DNA of 64,000 nt from Rickettsiales bacterium (lineage in GTDB: Bacteria > Pseudomonadota > Alphaproteobacteria > Rickettsiales > UBA8987). This document shows positions 5,621 to 58,358 of this stretch, piece by piece. Each line of letters begins with the position of its first letter. The first letter of the stretch is position 1. The DNA is taken from NCBI GenBank assembly GCA_020630095.1, contig JAHDCD010000001.1, positions 133,698 to 197,697 on the forward strand, read 5' to 3'. A program made the position numbers and the translations under genes. The notes below the pieces were generated by a model that was not told where the DNA came from, did no database searches, and worked only from the letters and a program-made list of their open reading frames with translations.

Positions 5621-5653
5621 AGTTTAAATGGCAAAGGTTAACAAAAGGTTAAC
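5621..5653 (-). promoter_or_regulatory. CtrA-type box (TTAA-N7-TTAAC) plus -10-like hexamer upstream of the 1027-aa ORFan
   Basis: Plus strand 5638-5653 is TTAAcaaaaggTTAAC (GTTAAC at both halves). In gene orientation, 11 nt then TAAACT (5626-5621), then 18 nt to ATG 5602. Confidence 0.5.
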
Positions 5654-5686
5654 TTGAAGTAGAAATGTTAACTAAAAATAGGGTTT

Positions 5687-7513
5687 TTAGGCCGCTTCTT
5701 CGCTGTTCTTTTCTTCCTCTGTTGAGTTTTTCTTTTCTAGTAGCTCGCGTGCTTTAAGGCTTAGTTGAACGTTAAGCTCGCGTAGTTGTTTATCGTCAAC
5801 TAGGGCAGGGGCATTCATAAGTAAGTCTTGCGCCTTTTGATTCATAGGGAATGCAATAACTTCGCGGATATTAGGTTCATCACAAAGTAGCATTACAATT
5901 CTGTCGATACCTGGGGCAATACCACCATGTGGAGGAGCGCCAAACTTGAATGCGCGGATCATGCCGCCGAATTTCTCGTCAACAAAGGCTTCGTCGTAGC
6001 CAACAATGCCAAATGCTTTGTACATAATTTCTGGCTTGTGGTTACGAATTGCGCCAGATGAAAGTTCGATTCCGTTACAAACAATATCATACTGGTATGC
6101 TTTTATGGCAAGTAGATCTTCATCTGTTTTTGCGTTTTCTAGCACTTCCATTTCGCCTTGAGGCATTGAGAATGGGTTGTGTGAGAAGTCTATTTTGCCT
6201 TCGTCTTCATTATATTCGAAGTAAGGGAAGTCTACTACCCAGCAGAATTTGAATTCATTTTCATTTATTAAATCTAGGTCGTTCGCAAGTTCAACACGAA
6301 CCTTGCCCGCTAATTCTGCGGCGAAAAGTTCTGCACCAGCGGAGAAGAATACAGCATCGCCTGCGCCAGCGTTAGCTGTTTGCTTAATTTGTTCAATGCG
6401 GTCGGCATCTAAGTTGTTAGCAATAGGGCCTTTGCCATTGCCTTCTTCGTCGAAGTTAATGTAGCCCAAACCTTTTGCGCCGTGGCTTTGTGCGAATTCG
6501 ATTTTCTTATCGAAGAAGCTTCTTGCCTTTGTGCCGCATTTTGGTGCTGGAATTGCACGGACAACTTGCCCCGCTTCAACTGTTTTAGCGAATATGCCGA
6601 AGCCTGAGCCACGGAATATTTCGGATACGTCCGTTATCTCTAAATCGTAGCGTAAATCTGGCTTGTCCGAGCCGTATTTTAGCATTGCATCATCGTATGT
6701 GATGCGTGGGAATGGAGTTGACGTTACTTTTTTATCGGTGAATTTTGTGAATATGTGATTCATTAAATTCTCAGTTATTTCAAATACTTCATCTTGCGTT
6801 ACGAAGCTCATCTCCATATCTAGCTGGTAGAATTCACCAGGGGAGCGGTCTGCTCTAGCGTCTTCATCGCGGAAGCAAGGGGCAATTTGGAAATAGCGGT
6901 CGAAACCTGATACCATTAATAATTGCTTAAATTGCTGAGGGGCTTGCGGTAGTGCGTAGAAATGCCCAGGGTGGACACGGCTTGGCACTAAATAATCACG
7001 TGCGCCTTCTGGCGAGCTTGCTGTTAATATTGGCGTTTGGAATTCGTTAAAATTTGCATCCGTCATGTATCGGCGGATTTCGCTAATTACATTAGACCTT
7101 AGTAATATGTTCTTGTGTAGCTTGTCTTTTCTTAAATCTAAGAAGCGGTATTTTAGGCGCGTAGATTCAGGAAATTCTTTATCTGAATTTACTTCTAGCG
7201 GTAAAACATCTGCCGCAGATTCTAGCGTTATAGATGTTGCTTTAATTTCTATTTCACCAGTTGCTAAATTTTTATTAACGGCTTCATCTGCACGGGCGAT
7301 AACTTCGCCTTCAACTGTAATTACGCTTTCGTAACGGATGTTAATATCTTCCTCGGTTACAATTTGCGTGATGCCGTAATGGTCGCGTAAATCGATGAAG
7401 AAAACGCCGCCATGGTCACGCTTACGGTGAACCCAGCCGGAAAGCTTTACGCTCTCGCCGATATCGGCTTTGTTTAGTTGGTTACAGGTATGTGATCTAT
7501 AAGGATTAGTCAT
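5687..7513 (-). CDS. aspS: Aspartate--tRNA ligase
   Basis: 608 aa. OB-fold N-terminus ([22 protein letters not shown]). Class II motifs ([29 protein letters not shown]). Short Glu/Lys-rich C-terminal tail. Confidence 0.95.
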
Positions 7514-7598
7514 TGCGGTAATTGTTTACTTATTCATGCGGTTTTATTCAAGAAAAACCTTGCATAAGATGAGATTTTTGTACTATATATGTTGCACT

Positions 7599-8141
7599 AT
7601 GTCTTTAACTATTAAACAGAAAGAAGTTGCAGTTTGGTTAGTTGATAATACTACCCTTACTTTTGAACAAATTGCCGAATTTTGTAATCTACACCCTGTA
7701 GAGGTGCGTGGTATTGCTGATGGTGAGGTTGCAGCTAACTTTATGGGTGCTAACCCTGTTGGGCAAAAAATGATCTCTCTGGAGAATCTTGAAGATGCTC
7801 AAAAGGATAAAAATGTTGCACTTAAATTATTACCTGAGTTTGCGGCATATTTAAAATCTAATGAGAAGAAAACTTCTCGCTATACTCCGATTGCTCGTAG
7901 GCAGGATAAGCCAGATGCAATCTTATGGTTATTAAAGAAATATCCGACTATTAATGATTCGCAAATTTCGAAGTTAATAGGTACTACTAAGAAAACTATT
8001 ACTTCTATTCGTGATAAATCTCATAGTAAGTATCAGCAGTTAAAGCCTAAAGATCCTGTATTATTAGGTCTTTGTGGTCAGTCTGCGCTTAATATTGTTG
8101 CTGAAAAATTAGAAAAAGCGGCTGATAAAGAGTCTGCTTAA
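7599..8141 (+). CDS. trcR: DUF1013-family cell-cycle transcriptional regulator (TrcR-like)
   Basis: VAVWLVDNTTLTFEQIAEFCNLHPVEVRGIADGE matches the alphaproteobacterial DUF1013 N-terminus. ATG at 7599 is preferred over the ORF-track start at 7536. TTGCAT (7560) and TATATA (7584) lie 9 nt before the ATG. Confidence 0.7.
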   Translation: MSLTIKQKEVAVWLVDNTTLTFEQIAEFCNLHPVEVRGIADGEVAANFMGANPVGQKMISLENLEDAQKDKNVALKLLPEFAAYLKSNEKKTSRYTPIARRQDKPDAILWLLKKYPTINDSQISKLIGTTKKTITSIRDKSHSKYQQLKPKDPVLLGLCGQSALNIVAEKLEKAADKESA

Positions 8142-8148
8142 TCTATTT

Positions 8149-9291
8149 TTATTCTATAATTTCTGAAATACGTTTTCCGGTGGCTAATGATTGAGTCCAA
8201 CCTAGGAAGCCATTGCCTGAGCAAATGTAAGTATCTTCTTGTAATTGCTTGATAATTGGTTGTCCGTTGGGGGTGAAGGGGCGAAGGCATGCCCATTCTT
8301 CAGATTCATTGATATTGCTCTCTAGTTGTGGAAAAAGTTTAAGAGTTTGTTGTTTTAATAGTTTTATACGGCTTGGAGTGATATCGTAATTAAAGCCATT
8401 AAATTCACCTGTTCCAGCCGCGCGTAGTCGGTTGCCAAGTCTTGTGTAAACAATTTTTGTATCTTCATCCATTAAACTTCCCGAAATGCAGTTTTCATCT
8501 TTAATCGGTACTGTAATGCTATAGCCCTTAGTTGGGTATATGGGTAGTCTAAGCCTAAGTTGTTTTGCTAAATTATAAGAGTTTGCACCTGCGGCGATAA
8601 TGATTTTTTCATTATTATTTGGCTTGGTAATTTTGTACTCAGCATCAAATACAAATTTTACACCTTTCTTTTGTAGTAAAGACTTAAGCTCTGTGCAGAA
8701 AACGCGGGAATTGCCAATTTCATCTTGAGGGTGGTAAATACTACCTGCGATATCTTTTTTAACAGATTTGTTATACTCGTAAAATTCTGATTTATTTAAA
8801 CTTTCGTAATTTACGCCTGCGTTCTTGGAGTAATTTTTGAATTTCTCTAAGTCTTTGACGTTTTTAAATATATGATAAATTCCGCTTTGTTTAAATTCAA
8901 AATCAAATGGGAATTTTTCTTCTTTAAATAGCTCTTTGGTTTCAAAGCCTAGTTTTAAAATTTCTTTTATATTTTGCCTTTTTTTGTAAGGTAAGGCATT
9001 TATTGCATATTTAAATAACCAAGGTAATTGTCCGTTCTTGAAGGATGGGCGAATAAGCAGAGGTGCATCTTCTTTGCCAAGCCAGCTTATGCCTTTTAAT
9101 ATATTACCTAATGATGATATAGGGCCGACATCGCTATATGAAAGCTGACAGCCATTTTGGAAGGTGCATTCGCCAGCAGGGTGCGGTTGCCTGTCAATTA
9201 CTGTTATATTATTATAATTTTTTTTATGGATGAAATACGCGGCAGAAAGTCCAATAATTCCTGAGCCAATTATGGTGATTTTATTATCCAC
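8149..9291 (-). CDS. FAD-dependent oxidoreductase, D-amino-acid dehydrogenase (DadA)-like
   Basis: N-terminal GxGxxG (IIGSGIIGLSAAYF). PIYPTKGYSITVP and LRPFTPNGQPII resemble DadA-family motifs. Confidence 0.7.
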   Translation of the reverse strand: MDNKITIIGSGIIGLSAAYFIHKKNYNNITVIDRQPHPAGECTFQNGCQLSYSDVGPISSLGNILKGISWLGKEDAPLLIRPSFKNGQLPWLFKYAINALPYKKRQNIKEILKLGFETKELFKEEKFPFDFEFKQSGIYHIFKNVKDLEKFKNYSKNAGVNYESLNKSEFYEYNKSVKKDIAGSIYHPQDEIGNSRVFCTELKSLLQKKGVKFVFDAEYKITKPNNNEKIIIAAGANSYNLAKQLRLRLPIYPTKGYSITVPIKDENCISGSLMDEDTKIVYTRLGNRLRAAGTGEFNGFNYDITPSRIKLLKQQTLKLFPQLESNINESEEWACLRPFTPNGQPIIKQLQEDTYICSGNGFLGWTQSLATGKRISEIIE

Positions 9292-9330: not shown

Positions 9331-9843
9331 TTATCTTGTTGGTGTGGTTACTGGTTTAGCTGAAGCGCTTGGAGTTACTGGTTTAGCTTCTGCACTTGGT
9401 ACAGGAGTTGCTCTAGGGGGAACTGGTTCAGCTTGAAAGGGTGTTGCTTTATCTAACTTTACCTTTCCACGCTCGCCTTTTTTTAGTTCTTGTATAGCTA
9501 TTTCATCTAATTCAAGTTGTGCAGGTAATTTAAAAATTGAGTCTTTTTGTCCTGTTTCTTGCTCTCTGGCTGATGCTTGAATTAAAGCTGCTAGACCTGT
9601 TGCTAATTCATCTGCTGATGGCTTTCTTTCTTTGTGTAAAGATTTTAGAGGTTTGTTCTTTTCTTTATCCTCTGTTAATGGAGTTATAGATTCTTGATAT
9701 TTTACTCTATCCATTCGAGATTCTTGATCTCGTGAAAGGACGCCATTACCATAAAAATGGTGTTGTTGTGTTTTATCTTCAGGTTTGTTAAGAAGTTTTT
9801 CTAAAATTTCACTAAAAATATTATTATTTTTATTATCTGCCAT
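9331..9843 (-). CDS. ORFan protein (170 aa), Pro/Thr/Ala-rich repeated C-terminus
   Basis: ORF with the box promoter. C-terminus KPVTPSASAKPVTTP is encoded by a duplicated gttactggtttagct segment (9344-9387). Confidence 0.6.
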   Translation of the reverse strand: MADNKNNNIFSEILEKLLNKPEDKTQQHHFYGNGVLSRDQESRMDRVKYQESITPLTEDKEKNKPLKSLHKERKPSADELATGLAALIQASAREQETGQKDSIFKLPAQLELDEIAIQELKKGERGKVKLDKATPFQAEPVPPRATPVPSAEAKPVTPSASAKPVTTPTR

Positions 9844-9850: not shown

Positions 9851-9883
9851 ATTGTAGCAGAGAAAGTTTAATAAAAAGTTAAC
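9851..9883 (-). promoter_or_regulatory. CtrA-type box plus -10, predicted leaderless promoter of ORF 9331..9843
   Basis: Plus strand 9868-9883 is TTAAtaaaaagTTAAC. In gene orientation: proximal TTAA, 11 nt, TACAAT (9856-9851), 7 nt, ATG 9843. No Shine-Dalgarno. Confidence 0.55.
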
Positions 9884-11349: not shown

Positions 11350-11988
11350 TTAAAATGTGAGCTTTAGTAAGCCCCACCAGTTAATATTTTGTATAGGAGT
11401 AAACTCGGATGTGCTAGAGTTTTTTACTTTAACTGCGTAGTGGTTAAGGATTTTTCTGAATTTCTTCAATTCTTTGTTTAACTCTAGTTTAGAAGCTTCT
11501 TGTTTAAGTTCTTGAATTTTATTGGATAAATCTTCTTTTTCTAAAATGGCTATGTTCGGGTAGTAGCTACACATGCGATACAGATTTATATAGCCATGTA
11601 ATAGTGTTAATTGATCATTCTTGGATGATATTATTTTAAGAATATTGCCGTATTTTTTAGAGCAGAAACCTTCGAAGTCAGTTTGGTCTTTAAAAGGTTT
11701 TTCGTCTAAAAAGCGTTCATGAGTATCTATTATTTCTAGTAGTAAAGAATAGTCTTTTTCAGTGAAAGTATCCTTCATTTTTTCTATTACATCATGTTTT
11801 TTAATAAGCCCTTCGGTAATTGCTTCGCGCCACCATTGGTAGCGTATCATCCCTATCATTTCTTCAGATGTTTTGTGAGGGATTTGTTCTATCTCATTTA
11901 AAAATAAGCATAAAGCTTCTGATCGTTTTCTTTGTGAGGGTTGTAAGAATAGGCTCCAAATATAATAATCGTAATGGGTATTTTTCAT
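11350..11988 (-). CDS. Squalene/phytoene-synthase-family protein (NDUFAF6-like)
   Basis: ALCLFLNEIEQIPHKTSEEMIGMIRYQWWREAI resembles the alphaproteobacterial ...FNLEIARI...RLQWWRDAL pattern. Shorter than typical members. Confidence 0.5.
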   Translation of the reverse strand: MKNTHYDYYIWSLFLQPSQRKRSEALCLFLNEIEQIPHKTSEEMIGMIRYQWWREAITEGLIKKHDVIEKMKDTFTEKDYSLLLEIIDTHERFLDEKPFKDQTDFEGFCSKKYGNILKIISSKNDQLTLLHGYINLYRMCSYYPNIAILEKEDLSNKIQELKQEASKLELNKELKKFRKILNHYAVKVKNSSTSEFTPIQNINWWGLLKLTF

Positions 11989-13599: not shown

Positions 13600-14157
13600 C
13601 TAATTCCCTTCGCCTTGCGCGACTAATTCTTTTAATTTTTTCTTTGCTCTCATTAATAGGCTTTCTAAGGCTTTTACGCCAACGCCTACAACATCGGCGG
13701 CTTCCTTATTTGAAAGTCCTTCATAAAAAGTTAAGTTTATAGCAAGTGCCTGATTTTCAGGAAGGGTTGCTATCATATCTTCAATTTGTCCTTGTAAAGT
13801 TTCCTTCTCAATGTCAACTGAGGTGTCAGCAAACTGTACATCTTCCATCATTGGAAGGGGCTTTTTCTTCTTAATATAATCTAAGCACATATTAGATACA
13901 ACTCGATAGAACCAAGTGGTAAATTTTGCAGCTTTTTCAGGGTTGTATATAGCCTTCTTGCTCCATAACTTTAGGAATGCTTCTTGGGTGATTTCTTCGG
14001 AAATATCTGGATCGCGAACGTAGCGATAGCATAGTGAATAGAACTTCTGAGAGTGGCGCTGAATAAGCATGGCAAAAGCAGGGTGGTTATCCTCTTCTTG
14101 AGCTAATTTGATTAGCTCTTCGTCTTTTAATTCGCTTATGTTGTTAGTTTTAGCCAC
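13600..14157 (-). CDS. ECF-type RNA polymerase sigma-70 factor
   Basis: 185 aa. Region 2 (YRYVRDPDISEEITQEAFLKLW) and region 4 HTH (LSNKEAADVVGVGVKALESLLMRAKKKL). GTG start. Confidence 0.85.
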   Translation of the reverse strand: MAKTNNISELKDEELIKLAQEEDNHPAFAMLIQRHSQKFYSLCYRYVRDPDISEEITQEAFLKLWSKKAIYNPEKAAKFTTWFYRVVSNMCLDYIKKKKPLPMMEDVQFADTSVDIEKETLQGQIEDMIATLPENQALAINLTFYEGLSNKEAADVVGVGVKALESLLMRAKKKLKELVAQGEGN

Positions 14158-22417: not shown

Positions 22418-22873
22418 TTACCTTGGTAATGTAGGGGGGCTAACCTCATTCTTAATCAATTTTAGATCAATACTTTTTCCACCAACCTCAGGTTTAGGTC
22501 TTTGATGAGCATCAGCTCTAATACTACCTAATACTATACTTAAATGATCCATAGAAGTTAACTCTTCACGAATCTGGGTTAAAGTTTCTGAAACTTTTTG
22601 AACTATAGGTACCCCCGCTTTTTCTAGGTTTTTAAGATCAGATAATTTAAATTCCAGTTTTAGATGTTTTTCGCCAATATTTTGATAATCAATACCTAGT
22701 GGCTCGAGCTCCTCTTCAACGATGGCTATACTTTCTTCGTTTTCAAATTCAAAAACAAAGGTATCACCACCATTAAGTTCCATAGCCCTATCTTTTGCCC
22801 ATTGTGGAACGATAACTTTTGAGGATAAAAAGGCTTCTTGTGCATCAGTAGAGAATATTTGAGCTTCTGTCAT
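22418..22873 (-). CDS. Acidic ORFan protein (151 aa)
   Basis: ORF with a box promoter, bracketed by the inverted U elements. No recognisable motif. Confidence 0.6.
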   Translation of the reverse strand: MTEAQIFSTDAQEAFLSSKVIVPQWAKDRAMELNGGDTFVFEFENEESIAIVEEELEPLGIDYQNIGEKHLKLEFKLSDLKNLEKAGVPIVQKVSETLTQIREELTSMDHLSIVLGSIRADAHQRPKPEVGGKSIDLKLIKNEVSPPTLPR

Positions 22874-24776: not shown

Positions 24777-25049
24777 TTATGCTACTTTAGCAATAATATC
24801 TGATTGGTTAAAAATTAAGTGCTCTGTACCTTCAATATCAATTTCAGTACCACCCCATTTAGCGATTAATACTGTGTCGCCTTCTTTAACGTTCATAGGC
24901 TCATCTTTTGTGCCCTCGCCAACAGCTGTAACAATAGCTTTGTTTGGCTTTTCTTTTGCGTTATCTGGAATGATAATGCCAGATGCTGTTTTAGTCTCTT
25001 CAGCTTCTCTTTTTACTAATACGCGGTTGCCTAATGGAATTACTTTCAT
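24777..25049 (-). CDS. groS: Co-chaperonin GroES
   Basis: 90 aa. PLGNRVLVKREAEETKTASGIIIPD mobile-loop pattern. AGGAG Shine-Dalgarno. Confidence 0.95.
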   Translation of the reverse strand: MKVIPLGNRVLVKREAEETKTASGIIIPDNAKEKPNKAIVTAVGEGTKDEPMNVKEGDTVLIAKWGGTEIDIEGTEHLIFNQSDIIAKVA

Positions 25050-25116: not shown

Positions 25117-25194
25117 GTAATAAGTAATATATAGTGAGATATACCTTTTGGTGTGGCAATAATATGGGTTATTAATGGCTTAATTTCAAGTGTG

Positions 25195-28017
25195 ATGAAT
25201 AAATTTTTTATAAAAATCCTTAGTTTAATTTGTGTGGTTTCTATTATTTTAACCACAAGCCCCGAGTTTGGAAGGGCGAACGAGTATTTTGACTACGATA
25301 CTGTTAGTAGAAATAATACTAATCCTAGGCTTATTCAAGCTGCGGCATATGGTAATATTGCAATTGTAGAGCAAGAGTTGTTGGCAGGTGCAAATGTTAA
25401 TATGATAGGTGTGTCGGGTACAACGGCATTAATGCAGGCTGCGTATAATAACGACTTTGAAATGACTGAGTTTTTAATTCAGTCGGGTGCTAGCCTTGAC
25501 CAACGTGATAGAAATCAACGTACGGCGGCGGAATATGCGGCGGCGGCTGACAATGTGCGTATGATAGAGCTTTTAGGTGCGTATGGTGCGGATATTGATA
25601 AATTTATAGTAGGAAAAACAGATTATGGCAGTTTATTATATACAACATTAGGTGTTGTAGCTGTTTTAGCGGCTGCGGGTGCTTTAGGTACAGATGGAGA
25701 GCCGGAAGATTCTACTGGCGGTGGTGGTACAACGCCAACTGTTCCTACGCCAGACCCAGGAACTGGCGGTTCAACGCCAACTGGGAATGTGGTTATTCCC
25801 GTTGCTCCGGAATCTGGAACGGCCTCAACATTTGAAGACACTGAATATGGAACTTCTGGTGCGCATGCCATTGTAAATGCCTCAGCAGCTTATGCGCGTG
25901 GTTATGATGGCTCTGTATTTACTCGTGATGCTGATGGTGCAAACCCTGTATTGGATGCATCTAAGGCTGTTAGGGTTGCGGTAATTGATGGTGGCATTGA
26001 TATTCATCATACAGATTTAGACGATAATTTAGCTACAACAGGCGCTAGGTGTTTAACATCGGGGTGCTTTGGTGATGGTGATGCTAGTGCATCCGAAGAT
26101 AATCATGGTACATTAGTTTCTTCATTAATTTTAGGTGAAGATAATAATTCCGGTGCAATGGGTATTGCGCCTGATGCAAAATTAATTCCTATCAATGCAA
26201 TTACGGCGGGTGGCTCAACTTCACGTGCGTTTGCTCATGCGGTGGGTAATGGCGCAGATATTATTAATAATAGTTGGGGTATTACAGATTTAGCTGGTAG
26301 AGAGGTGTATATTGCTGGCAATTCTACCGCAGCGGATGCTCAAGCCGCATTTAGTGGTGAAAATCAATTTAATGGTATTACGGATGGCGTTAACAATGGC
26401 TCTGTATTTGTATTTGCTACAGGTAATAGTGGTAATTCTGAACCGAATATAGTTGCTGGCTTACCTTTCTATTTTAATGGTGCGGCTAATAATGGTATCA
26501 ATACTTCAAATGTAGATTTACGTAATAATTGGATTGCAGTTGGTGCGTATAGCGCATCTGGTACGAATAATTTAGCATCGTTCTCTAATGCTTGCGGTGT
26601 GGCTAAAGATTGGTGTTTAGTTGCCCCTGGTTCTAGCTTAACGGGTGCGGCTAATGGTGGTGCAACTACTGGGTCATCGGCTACAACATCTGAAACTGGT
26701 ACAAGTTTTGCGGCGCCTGTAGTTTCTGGTGCATTGGCAGTTGTAATGGGTGCGTTCCCGCATTTATCAACTGAGCAGGCGGCTAGTATTTTGTTACAAA
26801 CGGCTACAGATTTAGGTCCGGCGGGTGTTGATGAATTTACGGGGCATGGTTTATTAAATTTAGATTCTGCAACTACACCAGGTGGTTCATTTGTTGTACC
26901 TACGGGCGGTAGTGCAGGTGTTTCACAATTTAGTGCAACGGGTACGGGGTTGGCATTTGGTAGAGCTTCAGCCAGTGCAGTTGGTTCGGAGAACAAGTTA
27001 ATGGTTATAGATTACCTTGGGCGTAATACATATATTGATGTGAATGATTTTACTTCATCTAGCAATGAGCGCTCAGAAAGCGTGAATGATTTATATAATA
27101 AATTCTCTAACAATCCTGATATTGAATTTAACGATGGTAAAACGGAATTTACATTAACAACGCGTTTACAGAATCGTGATGAGCTTGATAGATTTTCAGA
27201 GGAAGATTTACAAGGTTTCCAATATAAAGAGCAATTAAACAAGAAGACTAAGGTGGGTTTTGCCTATAACATGCCAGTTGATAATTCTGGCATTGGTTTG
27301 AATCAGTCTGATAATATACTTAGTTTAGCTGAGAAAGGGTATTCAGCTTCAATTGAAGGGCAGGGCTATAAGTTAGGTTTATTCAATGGGGAGTCACTTG
27401 ATAATGAAGATATTAAGTCTTCAGGTATTTATGTGGAGCAGGATATTGCTAAAAATATTTCATTCATTGGTGGTATTATTAATGAAGAGAATAGTTTTGT
27501 AGGTAATGCATCTTCTGGTGCATTGGAAGTTGGTGAGGATAATATTACTGCATTTTATGGTTTGAAAGGTGGTTATGATTATTCACCGAATCTTTCATTT
27601 AACGCGGAAGCTATTTTAGCTAATACGGAGCTTTCGGATGCTCCAACGAGTTCATTGGTTAATGGTGCTAGTGACATTATGTCGTCGTCATTCAAGCTTG
27701 GTGCGGCGTATAATGGTTTATTTAAAGCTAATGATAATTTCTCTTTAAACATTGCTCAGCCGTTAAAGGTAGAGCAGGGTACGCTTAATATTGCTACGCC
27801 AACATCTATTTCGGCTGATGGTTCTATTGGTTATGAGAATGATAATTTAAACTTAGCTTCAGATGCTAGGCAGGTGGATTTAGGTTTTGATTATAACCTA
27901 AACTTTGGTCTTGGTACTTCATTAAAAGCGGGTGCTATATTAAAAATGAATCCTAATCATTCATCGGATTACGAGAATGAATCGACAGGCTTCATAAGAT
28001 TGCAGCATAATTTCTAG
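25195..28017 (+). CDS. Ankyrin-repeat / subtilisin-like (S8) serine protease autotransporter
   Basis: Signal peptide MNKFFIKILSLICVVSIILT. About 3 ANK repeats (25321..25602), then a hydrophobic helix and a Gly/Thr/Pro linker. S8 triad contexts VAVIDGGID, HGTLVSS, GTSFAAPVVSG. C-terminal beta-barrel ending LQHNF. The ORF extends to a GTG at 25153. Confidence 0.8.
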   Translation: MNKFFIKILSLICVVSIILTTSPEFGRANEYFDYDTVSRNNTNPRLIQAAAYGNIAIVEQELLAGANVNMIGVSGTTALMQAAYNNDFEMTEFLIQSGASLDQRDRNQRTAAEYAAAADNVRMIELLGAYGADIDKFIVGKTDYGSLLYTTLGVVAVLAAAGALGTDGEPEDSTGGGGTTPTVPTPDPGTGGSTPTGNVVIPVAPESGTASTFEDTEYGTSGAHAIVNASAAYARGYDGSVFTRDADGANPVLDASKAVRVAVIDGGIDIHHTDLDDNLATTGARCLTSGCFGDGDASASEDNHGTLVSSLILGEDNNSGAMGIAPDAKLIPINAITAGGSTSRAFAHAVGNGADIINNSWGITDLAGREVYIAGNSTAADAQAAFSGENQFNGITDGVNNGSVFVFATGNSGNSEPNIVAGLPFYFNGAANNGINTSNVDLRNNWIAVGAYSASGTNNLASFSNACGVAKDWCLVAPGSSLTGAANGGATTGSSATTSETGTSFAAPVVSGALAVVMGAFPHLSTEQAASILLQTATDLGPAGVDEFTGHGLLNLDSATTPGGSFVVPTGGSAGVSQFSATGTGLAFGRASASAVGSENKLMVIDYLGRNTYIDVNDFTSSSNERSESVNDLYNKFSNNPDIEFNDGKTEFTLTTRLQNRDELDRFSEEDLQGFQYKEQLNKKTKVGFAYNMPVDNSGIGLNQSDNILSLAEKGYSASIEGQGYKLGLFNGESLDNEDIKSSGIYVEQDIAKNISFIGGIINEENSFVGNASSGALEVGEDNITAFYGLKGGYDYSPNLSFNAEAILANTELSDAPTSSLVNGASDIMSSSFKLGAAYNGLFKANDNFSLNIAQPLKVEQGTLNIATPTSISADGSIGYENDNLNLASDARQVDLGFDYNLNFGLGTSLKAGAILKMNPNHSSDYENESTGFIRLQHNF

Positions 28018-28379: not shown

Positions 28380-29339
28380 GTGGTTCAATTTTATGAATTA
28401 AATAGAGAAGGGCGCCTAGAATTGGTTGATTCAAAGAAGGATTTCAATCGAGGTGATAACGTGCTTTTATACCTTGGCCCTATAGAGGCTAGTTCAGATA
28501 ATAAAAATCAGCATATAGGAGGGATTAAGGTACTAAGGGATATTATAGGTGAGGATGTTATAAATAGCAGGGGGCTTAGATTGGTGTCTTTTCCTTATGA
28601 AGATATTAGTCAAAATAGTCTAAATTTTAACTGCTATAGGATGGAAAGAGATTCTTATTGTTCATTAGAGGCAAAAGAGTTGTTTGAGGCTTTACAATCT
28701 ATGACAGAATTCGGAAGCTCAGTTTCAATTGCAGCGCACAGTTATGGTACATCGTTTTTTGCTCAAATGGTTAATGGAAATAGATTTAAGCAAGGTGAGG
28801 GTTTAGAGGTAATACCAAGAATTTTTACTGGTACTGTAGTTCAATTAGGGCATGTGGAGCAAATGAAGGGTGATACTTTAGCAATGTATGGTATGAATGA
28901 TAAGGTGCTTGAGAATAGAGGTGTTTATCTAGATTCATATTTCAATATGGATACAGAGCTTGAAATATTAGATAAGGGCAATTCTGTTATGGTTGCAGGA
29001 ATGATTCCTACGAAAATTAATTTCTTTCGAGGAGGTGGGGGTGATTTGCGATATGAGAAGCATAAAGGGCTTAAAGATCATGAGGCGCATATTTTACCTG
29101 CGTATGTCTCTGCTGGAGCGGGTTGTGAGTTAGAAGTTGGTAACCCTGTAGAAACACCAATAAGCTATGCGTATAAGAATGCTTTAATTAATATGGTTCT
29201 AGGGCGGAGCCTTTCAGTGGATTCGTTGGCTTATTCAGATTTTCATTCTAAGTCACCTGAAAAGGCTGTTCCATCAGTTTATGCCCAACAAATGGAGTTG
29301 AGGGTGATGCAGGCTGTGGATAGAATGAATGGTATATAG
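28380..29339 (+). CDS. ORFan protein with possible alpha/beta-hydrolase (lipase/esterase) nucleophile motif
   Basis: 319 aa. AAHSYGTSF resembles a G/A-x-S-x-G nucleophile elbow. Later candidate Asp (GMNDKV) and His (KDHEAH). GTG start. Confidence 0.45.
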   Translation: MVQFYELNREGRLELVDSKKDFNRGDNVLLYLGPIEASSDNKNQHIGGIKVLRDIIGEDVINSRGLRLVSFPYEDISQNSLNFNCYRMERDSYCSLEAKELFEALQSMTEFGSSVSIAAHSYGTSFFAQMVNGNRFKQGEGLEVIPRIFTGTVVQLGHVEQMKGDTLAMYGMNDKVLENRGVYLDSYFNMDTELEILDKGNSVMVAGMIPTKINFFRGGGGDLRYEKHKGLKDHEAHILPAYVSAGAGCELEVGNPVETPISYAYKNALINMVLGRSLSVDSLAYSDFHSKSPEKAVPSVYAQQMELRVMQAVDRMNGI

Positions 29340-37060: not shown

Positions 37061-37942
37061 ATGAGCAATCAGTATAAAATTATAGCGTTCTACAAGTTTG
37101 TAGAAATTTTAAATTATGAAGAATTTAAAGAGCCTATTAAGGCGGCTATGGTTGAGCGTGGAATCAAAGGTACAATCCTTTTAGCGCGTGAAGGTGTTAA
37201 TGCTACTATTGCGGGTTCATCGGCTGAAGTGGATGATTTCTGGGAGTTCCTTAGTAATTTTGATGAACGCTTGGATGGCGGTTATAATTTTAAAACATCA
37301 TATTCAGAATTTCAGCCATTTGAGCGTACTAAAGTTCGTTTGAAGAAGGAAATTGTGCGCATGGGTTTAGAGAATTTGCCAGTTAAGTCTGGTGAGTATT
37401 TAAAGGGAGAAGATTGGGATAATATGATTATGAAGCCTGAAACTATCACCATTGACACGCGCAATGATTACGAGGTTATGATGGGTAGTTTTGAAGGGGC
37501 GGTTAATCCTGAAACTAAAGACTTTAGGTCTTTCCCGAAATGGGCGGATGACCATTTGAAAGATACCCCTAAGGATACGCCAATTGCGATGTTTTGCACT
37601 GGTGGTATTAGGTGCGAGAAGTCTACATCTTATTTAAAGCATAAAGGTTTTAAAAATGTGTACCATTTAGATGGTGGTATTTTGCAATATCTTGAAGATA
37701 AGCGCGATGAAGGCAAAGAGCATTTATGGAATGGCGATTGCTTTGTATTTGATGACAGGGTTGCCGTTAACGAAAGTTTAGAGCCTTCCCCTGCTCCGTT
37801 ATGTAAAGATTGCGGTCAGCCGGTTACGGGTGATGATATTCGTTGGGGCGATGTTGAACTACGTAAAGAAAGGCATAATCAGAAGGGTATGGTTTGCTTA
37901 CAATGTGCACCTGAATTATACTTGAAGAAGGAATCTAGTTAA
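37061..37942 (+). CDS. trhO: Rhodanese-domain tRNA uridine(34) hydroxylase (UPF0176/YceA family)
   Basis: IIAFYKF...GTILLAREGVNATIAGS and the rhodanese active-site loop CTGGIRCEKS. Confidence 0.8.
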   Translation: MSNQYKIIAFYKFVEILNYEEFKEPIKAAMVERGIKGTILLAREGVNATIAGSSAEVDDFWEFLSNFDERLDGGYNFKTSYSEFQPFERTKVRLKKEIVRMGLENLPVKSGEYLKGEDWDNMIMKPETITIDTRNDYEVMMGSFEGAVNPETKDFRSFPKWADDHLKDTPKDTPIAMFCTGGIRCEKSTSYLKHKGFKNVYHLDGGILQYLEDKRDEGKEHLWNGDCFVFDDRVAVNESLEPSPAPLCKDCGQPVTGDDIRWGDVELRKERHNQKGMVCLQCAPELYLKKESS

Positions 37943-39019
37943 TGTCTATTGATCTATATAAATCACAAATTGAAGAGGCTTTAGCTATGCTAGAGCAGTA
38001 TCTTTGACCTTGATAAATTAAATACAGAGTTTGCTGAGTTAGAGCAAAAAGCTAATGCACCAACTTTGTGGGATAACCCTACTGAAGCGCAAAAAATTAT
38101 GCTTAAAAAATCTGCTATAGAAAAGCAGATAAATTCTATAACGGATATCAAGCAAGGCTTGAATGATTACATTGAACTTACTGAAATTGCTGAAGGTGAT
38201 GAGCTAAAAGAGATTGAGGAATCTTTGAGCGATTTAGCTATTGAAGCTAATAAGGCAAAGATTGAAGCTTTATTTTCAGGCGAAGCTGATTCAAGCGATT
38301 GCTTTATTGAGATTCATGCAGGTGCAGGCGGTACAGAAAGTTGCGATTGGGCAGAAATGCTGTTGAGGCAATATTTACGTTGGTGTGAAAAGCATGAGTT
38401 TAAAACGGAAATTATAGATGAGCTTGTAGGCGATGAAGCTGGTATAAAATCGGTAACATTTTCTGCATCAGGTTTTAATGCCTATGGCTGGGCTAAAACG
38501 GAAAGTGGAGTACATCGGCTAGTACGCATAAGTCCGTTTGATAGTGCTGGTAAAAGGCATACATCGTTTGCATCTGTTTGGGTGTACCCAAAGATTGATG
38601 ATAATATCGAGATTGAAATTGATATGAGCGAGGTGCGCATTGATACTTATCGTGCATCTGGCGCGGGTGGTCAGCATGTTAATAAAACAGATTCCGCGGT
38701 GCGTTTAACGCATGAACCTACGGGTATTGTTGCGCAGTGTCAGAATGGTCGTTCACAGCATAAAAACAAGGCGGAGGCTATGCGTATTTTAAAGTCTCGT
38801 CTTTATGAGCTTGAGTTACGCAAACGTAATGAAGAAGCTGATGCCGCAAATGCCGATAAAACTGAAATTGGTTGGGGTAATCAGATACGCTCTTACGTTT
38901 TGCACCCGTATCAGATGGTTAAGGATTTACGCACTAAAGTTGAAACTGGTAATACATCTGCCGTACTAGATGGCGATTTGGACGAGTTTATTATGGCTAG
39001 CCTTTCTCAGAAGATTTAG
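37942..39019 (+). CDS. prfB: Peptide chain release factor 2, programmed +1 frameshift
   Basis: Frame 0 runs ATG 37942 ... TAT CTT TGA (CTT 38002-38004, TGA 38005-38007). After a +1 shift, GAC at 38006 continues as DLDKLNTEFAELEQKANAPTLWDNP... SPF and GGQ (ASGAGGQHVNKTDSAV) are present. Confidence 0.92.
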
Positions 39020-45157: not shown

Positions 45158-45433
45158 ATGAGTACAAAAGACATATTAGTTTCTGTGGTTGCTGTTATTC
45201 CGCCATTAATTGTAGCTTTAGAGCTGAGTAATGCCCTTGATAAGGATGGAAAATCAAATGCACCTCATATCCCAGAGGCCAAAGTTCAAACGGCAAGTGA
45301 AAAAGAAATTGCCGTCATGAAAGAGAGGGAGAGGTCTTTTGAAGAAGCTGTTGAAAAGCAAAGAGAAAAATGGCAAGATAGAGAGTCTAAAAGTAGCAAT
45401 TCAGCAGGCGCTCCATCGGGTTTTGGCAGATAA
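45158..45433 (+). CDS. ORFan membrane-anchored protein (91 aa)
   Basis: N-terminal TM ILVSVVAVIPPLIVAL followed by a charged tail. Has the box promoter. Confidence 0.55.
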   Translation: MSTKDILVSVVAVIPPLIVALELSNALDKDGKSNAPHIPEAKVQTASEKEIAVMKERERSFEEAVEKQREKWQDRESKSSNSAGAPSGFGR

Positions 45434-48068: not shown

Positions 48069-49355
48069 ATGTCTAACTACACAGATATAAGCAAGCTAAA
48101 GTTAATTCCTTTAAGAGGTGCCTTTCCAGAAAATGTACTAAAACTTACTTGGAATGAAATTCTTCAAACCTTTAATCCAACTCTATCTACTGAAAATTTT
48201 CAAGCCAGAGCTAAGGATAATAATGACATGGTTGACCTAGAAGCCTTAGTTATAGATATTAATGGTCGTGAAATAAACATATTTAAGAGAGCAAAGAGTG
48301 ATCCTCAAATTCAAGGTATTAACGAAAATCAAGTAATTATTTACATTACAGAATCTGATAGAGATCATATTTTAGAGAACACACACTCTGTAGAAAACTT
48401 TACTAGAATAGACTTTTCGGGGAAAAGAGGAAAGGTAACTGAGGGTATGCATTCACTTAAAAATGCCATTAGAGAGCAAATTCCTGAACAAAGAAATGAA
48501 TCCCCAATCTATACATTTAAAGAGGAAGGGCAAGCAACGAAAAAACTAAGAAAATTTAAATTTAAATTTGAAGGAAAAATTTACAACTATTACAATACAC
48601 AGGCTCAAGATAAAGAAACTTTATTTGCTAATGCTCACTTTGAAGCTGAACAGGCTAACGAAATAGAAGGAAAAATAGCCGAAATAGATTCACCTAAAGA
48701 AAGCAATGGTAAGAAAAGCGAGGCTTCACATAACGATGAAAAAATTATTCCGGCTTCAAAAATAATAAAACAACCCCAAAAAGTACGTTTTCACTTCTTA
48801 AATATCCTTGCGAATAGTGCAATTAAAAGAGATAGCGAGGGCGTGAAAAATCCAGATTATGGCTCAGGAAAATATTCTCAATGTTATTTTATTACCAATG
48901 AAGGAGCACAAATAGCCTTTACCGCTAAATTAAATCAAACAAAAAGGGCTTTAATATACATAAAAGAAAGTCAACAAAGCGATTTCCTTTCTCTCTATGA
49001 AGCTTATGAAGAGGCCTTCACAAAAGAGGGAGATGGCATAAGGAAAGAAAATGCAAATAGACGTAAGTATAATCTTAACCCTGAAAACGCCGATGAAAAA
49101 ACACTTATCACGGATGAAGAAAAAATAGCACGATGTAAAAGGGCTGGAATGAATGGCTTACTAGGAGAAATAGATAAAGAGGCAACTTCAGCATATAAAA
49201 AAACCAATGATATCCGCGACATACCGAGCAACAGTAAACCTAAGTTGCAAAAAGAGGGTGTTCAAATAGTCGCCAAAGCACCGGCAAAACCCTCTCAACA
49301 GCCAACAAGAGTTGTTGAAGCTCCAAAAACTGAAAATCAACTACAACAAGGCTAA
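48069..49355 (+). CDS. Lys/Glu-rich ORFan protein (428 aa)
   Basis: Long ORF with the box promoter. No signal peptide or recognisable motif. Confidence 0.65.
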   Translation: MSNYTDISKLKLIPLRGAFPENVLKLTWNEILQTFNPTLSTENFQARAKDNNDMVDLEALVIDINGREINIFKRAKSDPQIQGINENQVIIYITESDRDHILENTHSVENFTRIDFSGKRGKVTEGMHSLKNAIREQIPEQRNESPIYTFKEEGQATKKLRKFKFKFEGKIYNYYNTQAQDKETLFANAHFEAEQANEIEGKIAEIDSPKESNGKKSEASHNDEKIIPASKIIKQPQKVRFHFLNILANSAIKRDSEGVKNPDYGSGKYSQCYFITNEGAQIAFTAKLNQTKRALIYIKESQQSDFLSLYEAYEEAFTKEGDGIRKENANRRKYNLNPENADEKTLITDEEKIARCKRAGMNGLLGEIDKEATSAYKKTNDIRDIPSNSKPKLQKEGVQIVAKAPAKPSQQPTRVVEAPKTENQLQQG

Positions 49356-49530: not shown

Positions 49531-49731
49531 ATGAAAAGGGTAATTATGTTAACGGCACTAGCGTGCCTTGTTCAGTCTTGCACAGATGCGGATTCGTATC
49601 AGCAATCACTTAATCCAAATTATACAATTGTGGAATCTTATCCACAGAACGTATATTATGTTTCTGAAGAGGAGCGTTTATTCAATTCTCAAGCAGATGA
49701 AATGCAATTAAGTTACTATAATTGGTATTAA
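49531..49731 (+). CDS. Small lipoprotein (66 aa)
   Basis: Lipobox LVQS/C after the signal peptide MKRVIMLTALAC. GGGG Shine-Dalgarno. Confidence 0.55.
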   Translation: MKRVIMLTALACLVQSCTDADSYQQSLNPNYTIVESYPQNVYYVSEEERLFNSQADEMQLSYYNWY

Positions 49732-50123: not shown

Positions 50124-50297
50124 TTTTCTCTTCCACTAACATCCTATAAAGTCCATTAAATCCTTGTATATCAACGGCTACATCATTTTCTCTGTCCATA
50201 GAGGTTTACTATTGTCCAGTGACATCTAGTATAAATGAGGGGTAAAATGGAGGGGTAAAATTACCCACTATATTTTTTACCCTTCATTTATTAGAAA

Positions 50298-52798: not shown

Positions 52799-53527
52799 TT
52801 AATTGCTCTTCTTGGCGTTTTGTTTAAGTAGAACTTTTGAGGTGAAATAGCCTTTTTCTTTAGTTTCTGAAATGGTCTTTTTATTTACGCTTTTTTCTTT
52901 CGTTGAATCTGATTTGCGCTTATAGGTATTTTCCTTTGCTGTTATAATATAGCCGCCTTTAGATTCTGAAATTTTATCATTTAATTCAATGGTTAAGGTG
53001 AATTTCTTAACGCCTTTTCCGGATTTATATTTCTTGCCATAAATCATAATATGCAATGCGTTACGTGCTGGAATTGACCTTTGAGGATATTGTTCTTGCA
53101 GTTCTTGTAAGTCTGATTCAGCTTCTTCAATGGTTTTGTAGATATAACCGGATTCAACTTTACGTAATATGGGGTGAAGCCAGTCTGGGTGTTGCTTGCT
53201 GGTATCGTAACGCTTCATTGGGTGGATAGATAGTTTTGCTTCAAGTTTTTTTACTTTAAAGCCCCATTTTTTATCTTTTAATGGCGCTATATCAATAGTG
53301 GCGTAATTACCGTAAAAGCCTTTTTGAGACTCTTCTTTTGTTACGTTATATTCTTTTATCCAGATTATTAGGGTATCTTCATCTTCTGTGTTTAGCTTAG
53401 ATGTTATGAAGCGTTTGCGAATGTCCAGCAATGTGTTTTTGGCATCTTGTTTGCTTAGAAAACTATATCTATTTTCTACTATGGCGGCAATTTTAGGATG
53501 CTTTATGTAGGCGTAAACTGGTTTCAT
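52799..53527 (-). CDS. Lys-rich ORFan protein (~242 aa)
   Basis: ORF 52799..53539. ATG at 53527 (MKPVYAY) is preferred over the TTG at 53539. Has the box promoter. Confidence 0.6.
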   Translation of the reverse strand: MKPVYAYIKHPKIAAIVENRYSFLSKQDAKNTLLDIRKRFITSKLNTEDEDTLIIWIKEYNVTKEESQKGFYGNYATIDIAPLKDKKWGFKVKKLEAKLSIHPMKRYDTSKQHPDWLHPILRKVESGYIYKTIEEAESDLQELQEQYPQRSIPARNALHIMIYGKKYKSGKGVKKFTLTIELNDKISESKGGYIITAKENTYKRKSDSTKEKSVNKKTISETKEKGYFTSKVLLKQNAKKSN

Positions 53528-53535: not shown

Positions 53536-53568
53536 ACAATATTAGGTATAATTTAATAAAAGGTTAAG
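53536..53568 (-). promoter_or_regulatory. CtrA-type box (near-perfect) plus -10 for ORF 52799..53527
   Basis: Plus strand 53553-53568 is TTAAtaaaaggTTAAg. In gene orientation: TTAA, 11 nt, TATTGT (53541-53536), 8 nt, ATG 53527. Confidence 0.45.
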
Positions 53569-53638: not shown

Positions 53639-54127
53639 TTAGTTTCTAACTAGGTCAGTACTAAGCACTGGAAGCTTAAAAATTAATTTATAAGTTCCAT
53701 TAGCCTTTTTTATAACGCTAAAACCCTCAATCTCTACTGCGTACAGAAGAATATCCAATAATATGGAAAGCTCTGTAATCTCAATAGAGTGAGTTCTACC
53801 TTCAGTTTCGTAATGAAAGCGAACGGATCGTATTTGTTGTACGATGGGTTCTTCATTATTAACCTTAACAAAGGCCGACGAGGCGTTATCCTTGAGCAGA
53901 AGCCCGATTACGTTCTCGTTGTCGGTTTGAGTTATCTTGATTGAATCAAGACCTTCTTCCATCTCGAAAGATTGGAAGTAGAAAAACTTCCCCGATGTTG
54001 TTTCAATGCGAATAAGAGGCTCTCCCTCAAATGCATTGGTTGCGGTAGTTGTGGCGTTGGCGTTATTTGTGGCGACTCCGAAAAGTGCCACGATAATGGC
54101 TGCTGCGAACGAGTTATTCAATTTCAT
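53639..54127 (-). CDS. Secreted ORFan protein (162 aa)
   Basis: Signal peptide MKLNNSFAAAIIVALFGVATNNANA. No other motif. Confidence 0.6.
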   Translation of the reverse strand: MKLNNSFAAAIIVALFGVATNNANATTTATNAFEGEPLIRIETTSGKFFYFQSFEMEEGLDSIKITQTDNENVIGLLLKDNASSAFVKVNNEEPIVQQIRSVRFHYETEGRTHSIEITELSILLDILLYAVEIEGFSVIKKANGTYKLIFKLPVLSTDLVRN

Positions 54128-54253: not shown

Positions 54254-54285
54254 ATTATATCATATTGTGGTTAAGAAATAGTTAA
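54254..54285 (-). promoter_or_regulatory. CtrA-type box plus TATAAT; long-leader promoter of ORF 53639..54127
   Basis: Minus strand reads TTAActatttcTTAAC (54285->54270), 11 nt, TATAAT (54259->54254). About 120-nt leader with a hairpin and a CA-rich tract. Confidence 0.5.
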
Positions 54286-54289: not shown

Positions 54290-54322
54290 AAAAACGCCCT
54301 CCAGAAAGGGGAGGACGTTTTC
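54290..54322 (-). terminator. Rho-independent terminator downstream of pepA
   Basis: Minus strand reads aaaacgtcctcccc-tttctg-gagggcg followed by tttttttt. Confidence 0.6.
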
Positions 54323-54607
54323 GGTCTGTATTTTTAAGTTCTTTTTATCGAACAGCGCAATTAAGGCAGGTTACAGAAAACCAATTCCTTCCTAGTTAGG
54401 GTAAACTATTACAGGAAGAAAATCCTTAGCCACTACAGCTATCGTACCAATGACGATAATGGGGCCAAGGATTGTACTGGCTGCTAGGCACAAAATAAAA
54501 AACCATGCACAAAACCTTAGGTTTGATAAATAATTCCCAAACCATAGATGGATAAAGCGAAATGAACCTTTATTATACCCTAAAAAGGTTGATATAGGGT
54601 TAACTTA

Positions 54608-57507: not shown

Positions 57508-57604
57508 TATCTGCTGAGATGTTTTATGTTTATGTTGATGTTTGTGTGAGTTTTTTTCTTGAAACTCTAAACCCTTACAGCTAGAACCTAACATCTAACA
57601 GTTT

Positions 57605-57678
57605 GGCCCGGTAGCAAAGTGGTAATGCAGGGGATTGCAAATCCTCGATCGTCGGTTCGATTCCGTCCCGGGCCTCCA
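57605..57678 (+). tRNA. tRNA-Cys (anticodon GCA)
   Basis: GGCCCGG acceptor stem, 3-bp D stem, anticodon arm GGGGA-TTGCAAA-TCCTC, T arm GTCGG-TTCGATT-CCGTC (one U-U mismatch), CCGGGCC-T-CCA. 74 nt. Confidence 0.8.
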
Positions 57679-57952
57679 TAAGGATTAGTTTTCCTTTATA
57701 TATTTTATCAGATTTTCATTTGATTGCGACTGCTCGCCGCGGGGCGTCGGTTCGATTTCGTCCCGGGCCTCCATAAGGATTAGTTTTCCTTTATATATTT
57801 TATCAGATTTTCATTTGATTGCGACTGCTCGCCGCGGGGCGTCGGTTCGATTTCGTCCCGGGCCTCCATTTTCTTTCTTTTGAAGTTTTTAATATATCGG
57901 CTTGTATAGCAGTTGTTTCTAGTGGGCGTTGGTTTGAGTTCGTCCTGAGTCT
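57650..57952 (+). repeat. 95-bp tandem repeat re-copying the 3' end of tRNA-Cys
   Basis: cgtcggttcgatt(c/t)cgtcccgggcctcca occurs at 57650 (the real tRNA), 57745 and 57840, with an identical 66-nt spacer. A degenerate fourth copy lies at 57924-57952. Confidence 0.85.
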
Positions 57953-58013
57953 TTTAAGTTAATTTTTTAAGGGGTTATTTAGCTATTATGGCTACTTGCT
58001 GCGTCTAATGGTT

Positions 58014-58319
58014 TTAAATAGTTGATGTTTGTCTGTCTATGTCCCATTCACCTAAGCCTGTAATCTCTGGTGCTCTCATATTGGAGGCTTGACCGTCATA
58101 TAAATCTGTATTTATTTCTAAAAGGGTATCGATGTCTTTTTGTATTTCATCTAATTCAGATAATTCGCACTGCTCAATTCTTTCTATTAAATCTTCATAT
58201 GCGGAAATATCATCTTCAGAGACTTTGCCGTCAGCTAATAATTCTAATAGAGGTTGCCTGATTTCGATTTTAGCTACCTCTATTTTTGCTAGTTCGGCCG
58301 TTGAGGGTTCGTAATTCAT
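58014..58319 (-). CDS. Acidic ORFan protein (101 aa)
   Basis: ORF with the box promoter. Asp/Glu-rich, no motif. Confidence 0.55.
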   Translation of the reverse strand: MNYEPSTAELAKIEVAKIEIRQPLLELLADGKVSEDDISAYEDLIERIEQCELSELDEIQKDIDTLLEINTDLYDGQASNMRAPEITGLGEWDIDRQTSTI

Positions 58320-58325
58320 AAGTTA

Positions 58326-58358
58326 ATTATACAAGTAGTTTATTAAAATAAGGTTAAT
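58326..58358 (-). promoter_or_regulatory. CtrA-type box (near-perfect) plus TATAAT, predicted leaderless promoter of ORF 58014..58319
   Basis: Plus strand 58343-58358 is TTAAaataaggTTAAt and overlaps the zapE stop codon. In gene orientation: TTAA, 11 nt, TATAAT (58331-58326), 6 nt, ATG 58319. Confidence 0.5.

Follow-up and report, generated by a model that had tools for sequence, protein, structure and literature searches.

A stretch of 64,000 nucleotides (nt) from a Rickettsiales bacterium (GenBank assembly GCA_020630095.1, contig JAHDCD010000001.1, positions 133,698 to 197,697; hereafter, the window) carries eleven copies of the box TTAA-N7-TTAA at the promoters of genes that are nearly all orphans (ORFans), and ten of them are followed, exactly 11 nt (N11) after the gene-proximal TTAA, by a hexamer resembling a bacterial -10 element. 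Judging from the sequence, these are quite probably sigma-70 promoters that lack a -35 element, are activated by the response regulator CtrA, and mostly give leaderless mRNAs. An earlier note on the same DNA, made without database searches, had listed the eleven boxes, nine of them with TTAAC, together with their hexamers and coordinates, and all of these entries were verified (Table 1).

Enrichment and geometry of the boxes

The strict form, TTAA-N7-TTAAC, has 11 strand matches in the window, corresponding to nine distinct sites of which two are palindromic, while dinucleotide-preserving shuffles give a mean of 2.5 and none out of 100 reaches 11. The looser form, TTAA-N7-TTAA, is found at 15 sites. 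On a gene map made from non-overlapping open reading frames (ORFs), 92% of the window is coding and 5,196 nt (8.1% of the window) are intergenic, with 32% GC and with TTAA at 2% of the positions. Nine boxes are wholly intergenic, and those at 48031 and 58343 overlap just the last codons of the neighbouring upstream gene. When the intergenic segments are shuffled one by one (2000 shuffles), TTAA-N7-TTAA appears 0.9 times on average and five times at most, against the 9-11 observed. Furthermore, when the spacing of TTAA-Nx-TTAA in intergenic DNA is varied from x = 0 to x = 20, x = 7 is the sole enriched spacing, with 9 sites versus 0-4 for the others. Coding DNA holds four TTAA-N7-TTAA sites, including one at a gene end (61230), where about 7 are expected from the coding TTAA frequency. 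The statement of the earlier note that the copies are far beyond chance is borne out by the shuffles, by the enrichment of N7 only and by the fixed position of the hexamer described below. The boxes are spread across 53 kb amid housekeeping genes at a density of about one per 5-6 kb.

Aligned in gene orientation, the sites give a consensus TTAAC-n-TTTT-n-TTAA(c), then 11 nt from the proximal TTAA, and then a hexamer TAnaaT; outside the box and the -10 element, they show no common similarity. A TAnnnT hexamer is found at offset 11 past the proximal TTAA in nine of the eleven sites, and GATAAT in a tenth, while the other offsets (0-34) have three at most. As TAnnnT has a frequency of 0.042 in the intergenic background, its presence at offset 11 in nine of eleven sites has a binomial P of 2e-11. 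The site at 49386 is the only exception, as had been claimed. The conserved C was described in the earlier note as following the proximal TTAA; it instead follows the promoter-distal TTAA, in 10 of 11 sites versus 6 of 11 for the proximal one, and the flanking C is present at nine of the eleven sites with both TTAA half-sites perfect. The spacer between the half-sites is a T-tract in the coding strand, with four columns having T at 8-10 of the 11 sites. Between the end of the distal TTAAC and the -10 element there are 21 nt, and between the end of the proximal TTAA and the -10 element 11 nt, or 10 nt where C follows. In a scan of 44-59 kb for TTGACA/TATAAT pairs, no N11 hexamer of the box promoters located there was paired with a -35-like hexamer. 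Ordinary promoters of the window carry TTGnnn at N15-17, for example that of trcR and that of the non-box gene at 37061 (TTGCTA-N17-TATAAT).

In seven genes, the start codon lies 6, 6, 6, 6, 7, 7, and 8 nt past the hexamer, in agreement with the earlier note, and the distance from the 5′ nucleotide of the box to the first base of the start codon is 38, 38, 38, 38, 39, 39, and 40 nt, respectively. Box, -10 element and start codon therefore form a unit of 38-40 nt that fits spacers as short as 34-42 nt, and several of the units are located directly 3′ of the stop codon of the preceding gene or of a strong terminator (Table 1). Neither a leader nor a Shine-Dalgarno sequence fits into the 6-8 nt between -10 element and start codon, and the seven mRNAs are predicted to be leaderless. 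Shine-Dalgarno sequences are indeed absent from these genes, as had been pointed out, but their absence is not special to the box genes, because a Shine-Dalgarno sequence within 20 nt of the start is recognisable in only about 12 of 60 genes of the window, with strong ones at groES, groEL, and the genes for an EF-hand protein, a DUF2147 protein and a peptidoglycan-binding protein. What is special to the box genes is the short distance from -10 to start. TAnnnT hexamers 6-8 nt before the start are also seen at the non-box genes 8149..9291, 11350..11988, 13600..14157, and 37061..37942, and initiation in this genome may often be leaderless or independent of Shine-Dalgarno sequences.

Table 1. Boxes of the window with their -10 hexamers and downstream genes (aa, amino acids); distances in the start-codon column are counted from the hexamer.
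Box sequence	Box position	Strand	-10 hexamer (position)	Start codon	Downstream gene and product	Remarks
TTAACCTTTTGTTAA	5638..5652	-	TAAACT (5621-5626)	ATG, 18-nt gap	2519..5602, 1027-aa ORFan	
TTAACTTTTTATTAA	9868..9882	-	TACAAT (9851-9856)	ATG 9843, 7 nt	9331..9843, 170-aa ORFan	5′ nt of box 39 nt from ATG; product without Pfam match
TTAACGTTTTTTTAA	22898..22912	-	TAGGGT (22881-22886)	ATG 22873, 7 nt	22418..22873 (-), 151-aa ORFan	Abuts groEL terminator
TTAACGTTATGTTAA	25085..25099	+	TACTAT (25111-25116)	ATG 25195 (likely)	25153..28017, ankyrin repeats + subtilase	Between groES (24777..25049, -) and target gene
TTAATAATTTCTTAA	28342..28356	+	TATAAT (28368-28373)	GTG 28380, 6 nt	28380..29339, 319-aa ORFan	
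TTAACGCTTTGTTAA	45120..45134	+	TAATAT (45146-45151)	ATG 45158, 6 nt	45158..45433 (+), 91-aa ORFan	Begins 5 nt past acyl-CoA dehydrogenase stop
TTAACGTTTTTTTAA	48031..48045	+	GATAAT (48057-48062)	ATG 48069, 6 nt	48069..49355 (+), 428-aa ORFan	Overlaps exoD stop codon
TTAACTTAAAGTTAA	49386..49400	+	CTAAGC at N11, no TAnnnT		49531..49731, 66-aa lipoprotein-like ORF	ORF 131 nt downstream of box
TTAACCTTTTATTAA	53553..53567	-	TATTGT (53536-53541)	ATG 53527, 8 nt	52799..53527 (-), 242-aa ORFan	Directly after strong terminator 53612-53579
TTAACTATTTCTTAA	54271..54285	-	TATAAT (54254-54259)		53639..54127 (-), 162-aa signal-peptide protein	Directly after strong terminator 54322-54290; predicted leader about 120 nt
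TTAACCTTATTTTAA	58343..58357	-	TATAAT (58326-58331)	ATG 58319, 6 nt	58014..58319 (-), 101-aa ORFan	Overlaps 3′ end of AFG1-ATPase gene
TTAACCCTATATCAA	54589..54603	-	TATAAT (54572-54577)			Candidate twelfth box; 1 mismatch, hexamer after 11 nt

CtrA as the probable activator

TTAA-N7-TTAAC and TTAACCAT are published motifs of CtrA, a cell-cycle response regulator of the OmpR/PhoB family, and the equation of the box with the CtrA consensus of alphaproteobacteria, made in the earlier note, is in accordance with this. The host is alphaproteobacterial: among the best 80 loci of a GroEL search confirmed by tblastn, all are alphaproteobacterial where the class is named, and the best relative, 75% identical, belongs to a metagenome-assembled genome (MAG) of an “uncultured Rickettsiales bacterium.” CtrA is conserved in most alphaproteobacteria including Rickettsiales and Anaplasmataceae, and ctrA of Rickettsia prowazekii complements Caulobacter.

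In Caulobacter, the majority of the promoters activated by CtrA carry one site at -35. A global 5′-RACE (rapid amplification of cDNA ends) study places the 5′ nucleotide of the full motif near -35 at activated promoters, for example at -39 for ctrA P2 (PMC4287350), and in dataset S5 of that study 31 of the 44 rows shown have this nucleotide at -38, -39, or -40 relative to the mapped transcription start site (TSS) (PMC4287350). The Caulobacter motifs in TSS orientation often begin with TTAAC (dataset S5, PMC4287350), like the distal TTAAC of the window boxes. A matrix built from 32 of the S5 sites is informative only at the TTAA half-sites, and the window boxes score its maximum. In the seven genes of the window, the distance from box to start codon equals that from box to TSS in Caulobacter, so that the start codon stands where a CtrA-type promoter should begin transcription; the CtrA reading and the predicted leaderless mRNAs both draw their best support from this match. 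Leaderless mRNAs are documented in Caulobacter and Sinorhizobium meliloti, one of them with a CtrA motif (CCNA_01391). The earlier note had argued that the box takes the place of the -35 element and predicts leaderless transcripts, and the -10 hexamers left unpaired in the scan of 44-59 kb and the 38-40 nt shared with Caulobacter lend support to the positional part of that argument, with CtrA as the probable binding protein.

The geometry is not peculiar to this genome, since TTAA-N7-TTAA followed by exactly 11 nt and by TATACT or TATAGT is also found in two distant alphaproteobacterial relatives with 50% and 47% GC (loci L001, 12321-12352, and L081, 11875-11906). One of these boxes lies upstream of a gene for 328 aa that is itself located downstream of groEL, and the other is upstream of the gene for a 693-aa histidine kinase adjoining an acyl-CoA dehydrogenase gene. 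A pooled scan of the best 80 GroEL loci yielded too few box sites to be informative, and neither L081 nor L082 shows conserved synteny. As a separate observation, four marine single-cell and MAG loci of alphaproteobacteria share a conserved TTAATATTATATTAA followed by 11 nt, TATTTT and immediately by ATG (L063 at 15644, L064 at 15641, L074 at 6895, and L080 at 15647), which may represent a further site of the CtrA type that this clade has conserved near groEL.

Under the CtrA reading, a dimer of phosphorylated CtrA (CtrA~P) would bind both TTAA half-sites, one helical turn apart, at about -38 to -35 and -27 to -24. As a class II activator, the bound CtrA would substitute for the -35 hexamer and bring sigma-70 RNA polymerase to a good -10 element at -12 to -7, and the T-tract, by analogy with pho boxes, may give a narrow minor groove that is contacted by the wings of OmpR/PhoB-family proteins. 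The first base of the start codon (A or G) would fall at the predicted +1 to +3 of seven promoters, and the transcript would begin at the start codon or 1-2 nt before it and be translated as a leaderless mRNA. The target set would then be turned on jointly at times of high CtrA~P.

Several points weigh against this reading. The 8-mer TTAACCAT is not enriched in the window, and ctrA, cckA, and chpT are not found in the 64 kb; a few alphaproteobacteria are without ctrA. CtrA sites overlapping the -35 region can repress in some contexts. Classical CtrA targets of the window, namely the gene for a pilB/gspE-like ATPase, trcR and histidine kinase genes, are without a box, with a poorly spaced site at 61230 as a possible exception. 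For example, trcR, which is discussed as a putative CtrA target in other species, has no CtrA box upstream and has an ordinary promoter (TTGCAT-N15-TACTAT) before an in-frame ATG at 7599. Moreover, the mapped leaderless mRNAs of S. meliloti all start with AUG, and other start codons are reported to be inefficient, which speaks against a leaderless mRNA of the gene starting with GTG at 28380.

The strongest competitor of CtrA is a different winged-helix regulator of the OmpR/PhoB family that recognises TTAA direct repeats one turn apart, like PmrA; this is unlikely on the present evidence. An 11-bp periodicity ending 10-11 nt before the -10 element is generic for class II activation of the PhoB/OmpR type, and PmrA of Legionella and Coxiella is a winged helix-turn-helix regulator that activates about 40 effector genes. 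The PmrA consensus, reportedly from work of Zusman and colleagues in 2007, is a tandem repeat containing TTAAT. That the targets are ORFans rather than classical CtrA targets, and that ctrA is not seen in the window, would also suit another regulator. However, the host is alphaproteobacterial and not a member of Legionellales, half-site, spacing and flanking C exactly match the CtrA consensus, and the distance from box to start is that of mapped CtrA promoters. To our knowledge, no other alphaproteobacterial regulator has TTAA-N7-TTAA specificity. The idea of a PmrA box in a member of Legionellales, which the likeness of TTAA-N7-TTAA to the PmrA element together with a GC content of 37% had brought up, was rejected because of the alphaproteobacterial GroEL.

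It is less probable still that no activator is involved and that RNA polymerase itself reads the TTAA(C) repeats, either as a variant -35 or UP element or as the -35 element of an alternative sigma factor such as the extracytoplasmic function (ECF) sigma encoded at 13600..14157. The -35 elements of ECF sigma factors contain AAC, an ECF sigma gene is present in the window, and the box stands at a fixed distance from the -10 element as a sigma-recognised -35 would. The hexamers, however, are TATAAT-like and of the housekeeping type, not the CGTT or TCxx of ECF promoters; neither half-site is at the -35 spacing of 16-18 nt from the -10 element, a pair of half-sites separated by one turn points to a DNA-binding protein that is a dimer, and ordinary promoters of the window use TTGnnn at N17. 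Finally, the pattern could be without regulatory meaning, either as a by-product of AT-rich composition or as the conserved terminus of some small element, repeated or mobile. In favour of this, TTAA is common in the AT-rich intergenic DNA, and four of the sites are near the decayed integrase and the duplications of tRNA-Ser at 49.8-50.9 kb. The idea can practically be discarded, however: it is effectively refuted by the shuffle statistics, the N11 geometry and the lack of similarity outside box and -10, and the wide spread of the sites and the native codon usage of the targets also stand against it.

Target genes and genomic surroundings

Of the ten targets, nine are without a Pfam domain; the remaining one combines ankyrin repeats with a subtilase domain. 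The 319-aa, 428-aa, and 1027-aa proteins match only themselves among 5.8 billion clustered proteins and in an HMMER scan of 1.84 billion representatives; these three of the ten targets are the ones covered by the large-database searches, and the 428-aa protein is a singleton by a full HMMER scan of the representatives. Elsewhere, the 1027-aa protein is found only on a 4.3-kb Logan contig of run SRR14415275. For the 319-aa ORFan, no sequence match was found in the PDB, and a single-sequence AlphaFold model with a mean predicted local distance difference test score (pLDDT) of 34 is unusable. All targets have a frame-specific codon usage resembling that of housekeeping genes, which shows that they are real genes and not recent foreign DNA, and no paralogy was found among them. 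The targets are genuine, natively coded and lineage-specific genes.

Other descriptions in the earlier note are not supported. The 1027-aa protein had been called Inc-like, but it has no hydrophobic segment: no 19-residue window exceeds a Kyte-Doolittle mean of 1.6, the grand average of hydropathicity (GRAVY) is -0.74 and the isoelectric point is 4.8. The product of 25153..28017, which ends in ...QHNF, had been called an autotransporter; Pfam finds only Ank and Peptidase_S8 in it and no autotransporter domain at E <= 0.01. With its -10 element at 25111-25116 and its likely ATG at 25195, the mRNA of this gene is predicted to have a leader. A check of the targets for secretion signals, which the earlier note had recommended, found signal-like N-termini in only two of ten, the product of 53639..54127 and the subtilase (probably from Met15, at 25195), so that “secreted” misdescribes the set; the seven predicted-leaderless products are hydrophilic and without signal peptide.

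A relaxed scan (up to two mismatches plus N11 TAnnnT) gave extra matches that are nearly all intragenic and noise-like, and the candidate twelfth box at 54589 on the minus strand is the only plausible one. In the approximately 250 nt after it, up to the terminator at 54322-54290, there are only ORFs of 33-39 aa, among them one for a hydrophobic peptide of 33 aa (MCLAASTILGPIIVIGTIAVVAKDFLPVIVYPN). The region 54290-54603 (-) could be a gene for a small RNA or a micro-protein under the same control. Another case is the perfect TTAA-N7-TTAA at 61230 (61230-61274, +), which overlaps the stop codon of pyrD 42 nt upstream of the ATG of a PAS histidine kinase gene (61272..63248). Its N11 hexamer, TCAATT, is poor and its spacer contains TTGACT, and the site may be due to chance or may serve a signalling gene as a CtrA site with a different wiring.

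Besides the ECF sigma factor and the PAS kinase, the window encodes a TrcR-family cell-cycle regulator (PF06242) and a PleC/DivJ/PdhS-like histidine kinase, and these two agree with an alphaproteobacterial host. The trcR ORF, 7536-8141 (+), is probably over-extended, as PF06242 starts at residue 55 and the start is probably at 7599. No close relative exists; identity to the nearest non-self acyl-CoA dehydrogenase is 70%, and to the nearest GroEL 75%. Eukaryote-like domains are seen in the ankyrin-subtilase protein (25153-28017, +) and in a 130-aa EF-hand protein (40211-40603, +) with a strong Shine-Dalgarno sequence, and ankyrin-repeat and EF-hand proteins suggest that the organism is eukaryote-associated. 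Neither dot/icm nor type IV secretion genes are present in the window; in a relative, VirB8 and the gene for a 17-kDa antigen of the Rickettsia type are present at locus L082.

In the region of tRNA-Ser(tga), the first about 15 nt of the tRNA gene and about 16 nt upstream form 31-nt direct repeats in three copies (49810, 49923, and 50016), the third of which leads into the intact tRNA-Ser gene 50034-50123. Just downstream (50298-50876), a truncated ORF for a tyrosine integrase has the arm-binding domain and the central domain but no catalytic domain, and the region 49810-50876 looks like a decayed integration hotspot. The boxes at 49386, 53553, 54271, and 54589 are within 5 kb of it. The prfB gene (37943-39019, +) has a classical programmed +1 frameshift site, CTTTGAC, at 38002-38008, which explains an ORF starting with TTG (38066..39019) and the apparent gap of 123 nt before it.

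Significance and comparison with known regulons

Caulobacter already provides the motif, its location at -35, the distance between motif and TSS, and leaderless promoters that contain a CtrA motif. What the window adds is a version of the CtrA promoter with unusual regularity, a perfect consensus and a design predicted to be predominantly leaderless, and its near-exclusive attachment, at the density given above, to orphan genes in an unstudied lineage. The window thus offers a clean natural example in which a CtrA-type activator site, a -10 element and a start codon are locked within 38-40 nt, and in which the motif of a cell-cycle regulator is attached almost only to genes without homologues; it is a useful case for how orphan genes acquire regulation. 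If the pattern is genome-wide, the composite motif would predict TSSs, leaderless mRNAs and co-regulated lineage-specific proteins from sequence alone, and it would give a concrete list of candidate host-interaction factors in an uncultured, probably eukaryote-associated alphaproteobacterium.

A cell-cycle or developmental role of the targets, or a host-directed one, may be imagined on this basis. More boldly, CtrA might have been rewired in this lineage into a master switch that controls a large array of lineage-specific proteins, which may be delivered to a host; this idea is rather doubtful. If it were true, the 38-nt module would act as a standard plug joining newborn or acquired genes to a cell-cycle or developmental programme, and the regulon would parallel, by convergence, the one in which PmrA controls the effectors of Legionella and Coxiella, with a motif usable for effector finding. 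If the density held genome-wide, there would be hundreds of targets, making this the ORFan-richest CtrA regulon known.

Among known systems, the pho box of Escherichia coli, bound by PhoB, likewise consists of two direct-repeat half-sites with an 11-bp periodicity that replace the -35 element and end about 10 bp before the -10 element, with an A/T-rich minor-groove segment between the repeats. It differs in its recognition sequence and its regulator, and it has no association with leaderless transcripts. The promoters of Dot/Icm effectors both in Legionella pneumophila and in Coxiella burnetii are similar in that a winged-helix regulator, PmrA, uses a tandem TTAA-containing repeat upstream of the -10 element, in that many scattered lineage-specific genes are under its control, and in that the motif was used to discover effectors. 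This system is, however, gammaproteobacterial and not alphaproteobacterial, has another regulator, and serves proven secretion substrates.

Closer in lineage are the CtrA regulons of obligate intracellular Rickettsiales, namely CtrA of Ehrlichia chaffeensis and CckA/CtrA of Wolbachia and Orientia. The window likewise comes from a low-GC alphaproteobacterium with hallmarks of host association (ankyrin and EF-hand proteins). In those Rickettsiales, the CtrA consensus serves for target prediction, and CtrA is tied to the developmental stage. Unlike the window boxes, the Ehrlichia sites are located far upstream, for example at -181 to -166 from the gst start codon, and in the literature on Rickettsiales CtrA that was examined, neither a rigid module of box, -10 and start codon nor an ORFan-dominated target set is described.

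The closest likeness is to the Caulobacter promoters with CtrA at the -35 position, such as ctrA P2, ccrM, fliQ, and pilA site 1, which have the same half-sites and spacing, often with TTAAC. The class II CtrA promoters of Caulobacter likewise have a single site that overlaps or replaces the -35 element, with its 5′ nucleotide at -38 to -40 from the TSS, and a leaderless promoter with a CtrA motif (CCNA_01391) is known there too. In contrast to the mostly degenerate Caulobacter sites, the window sites have both half-sites perfect, and they are combined with a conserved T-tract spacer and a TATAAT-like -10 element. Furthermore, seven of the ten window transcripts are predicted to be leaderless, and the targets are ORFans instead of flagellar, chemotaxis, pilus or division genes.

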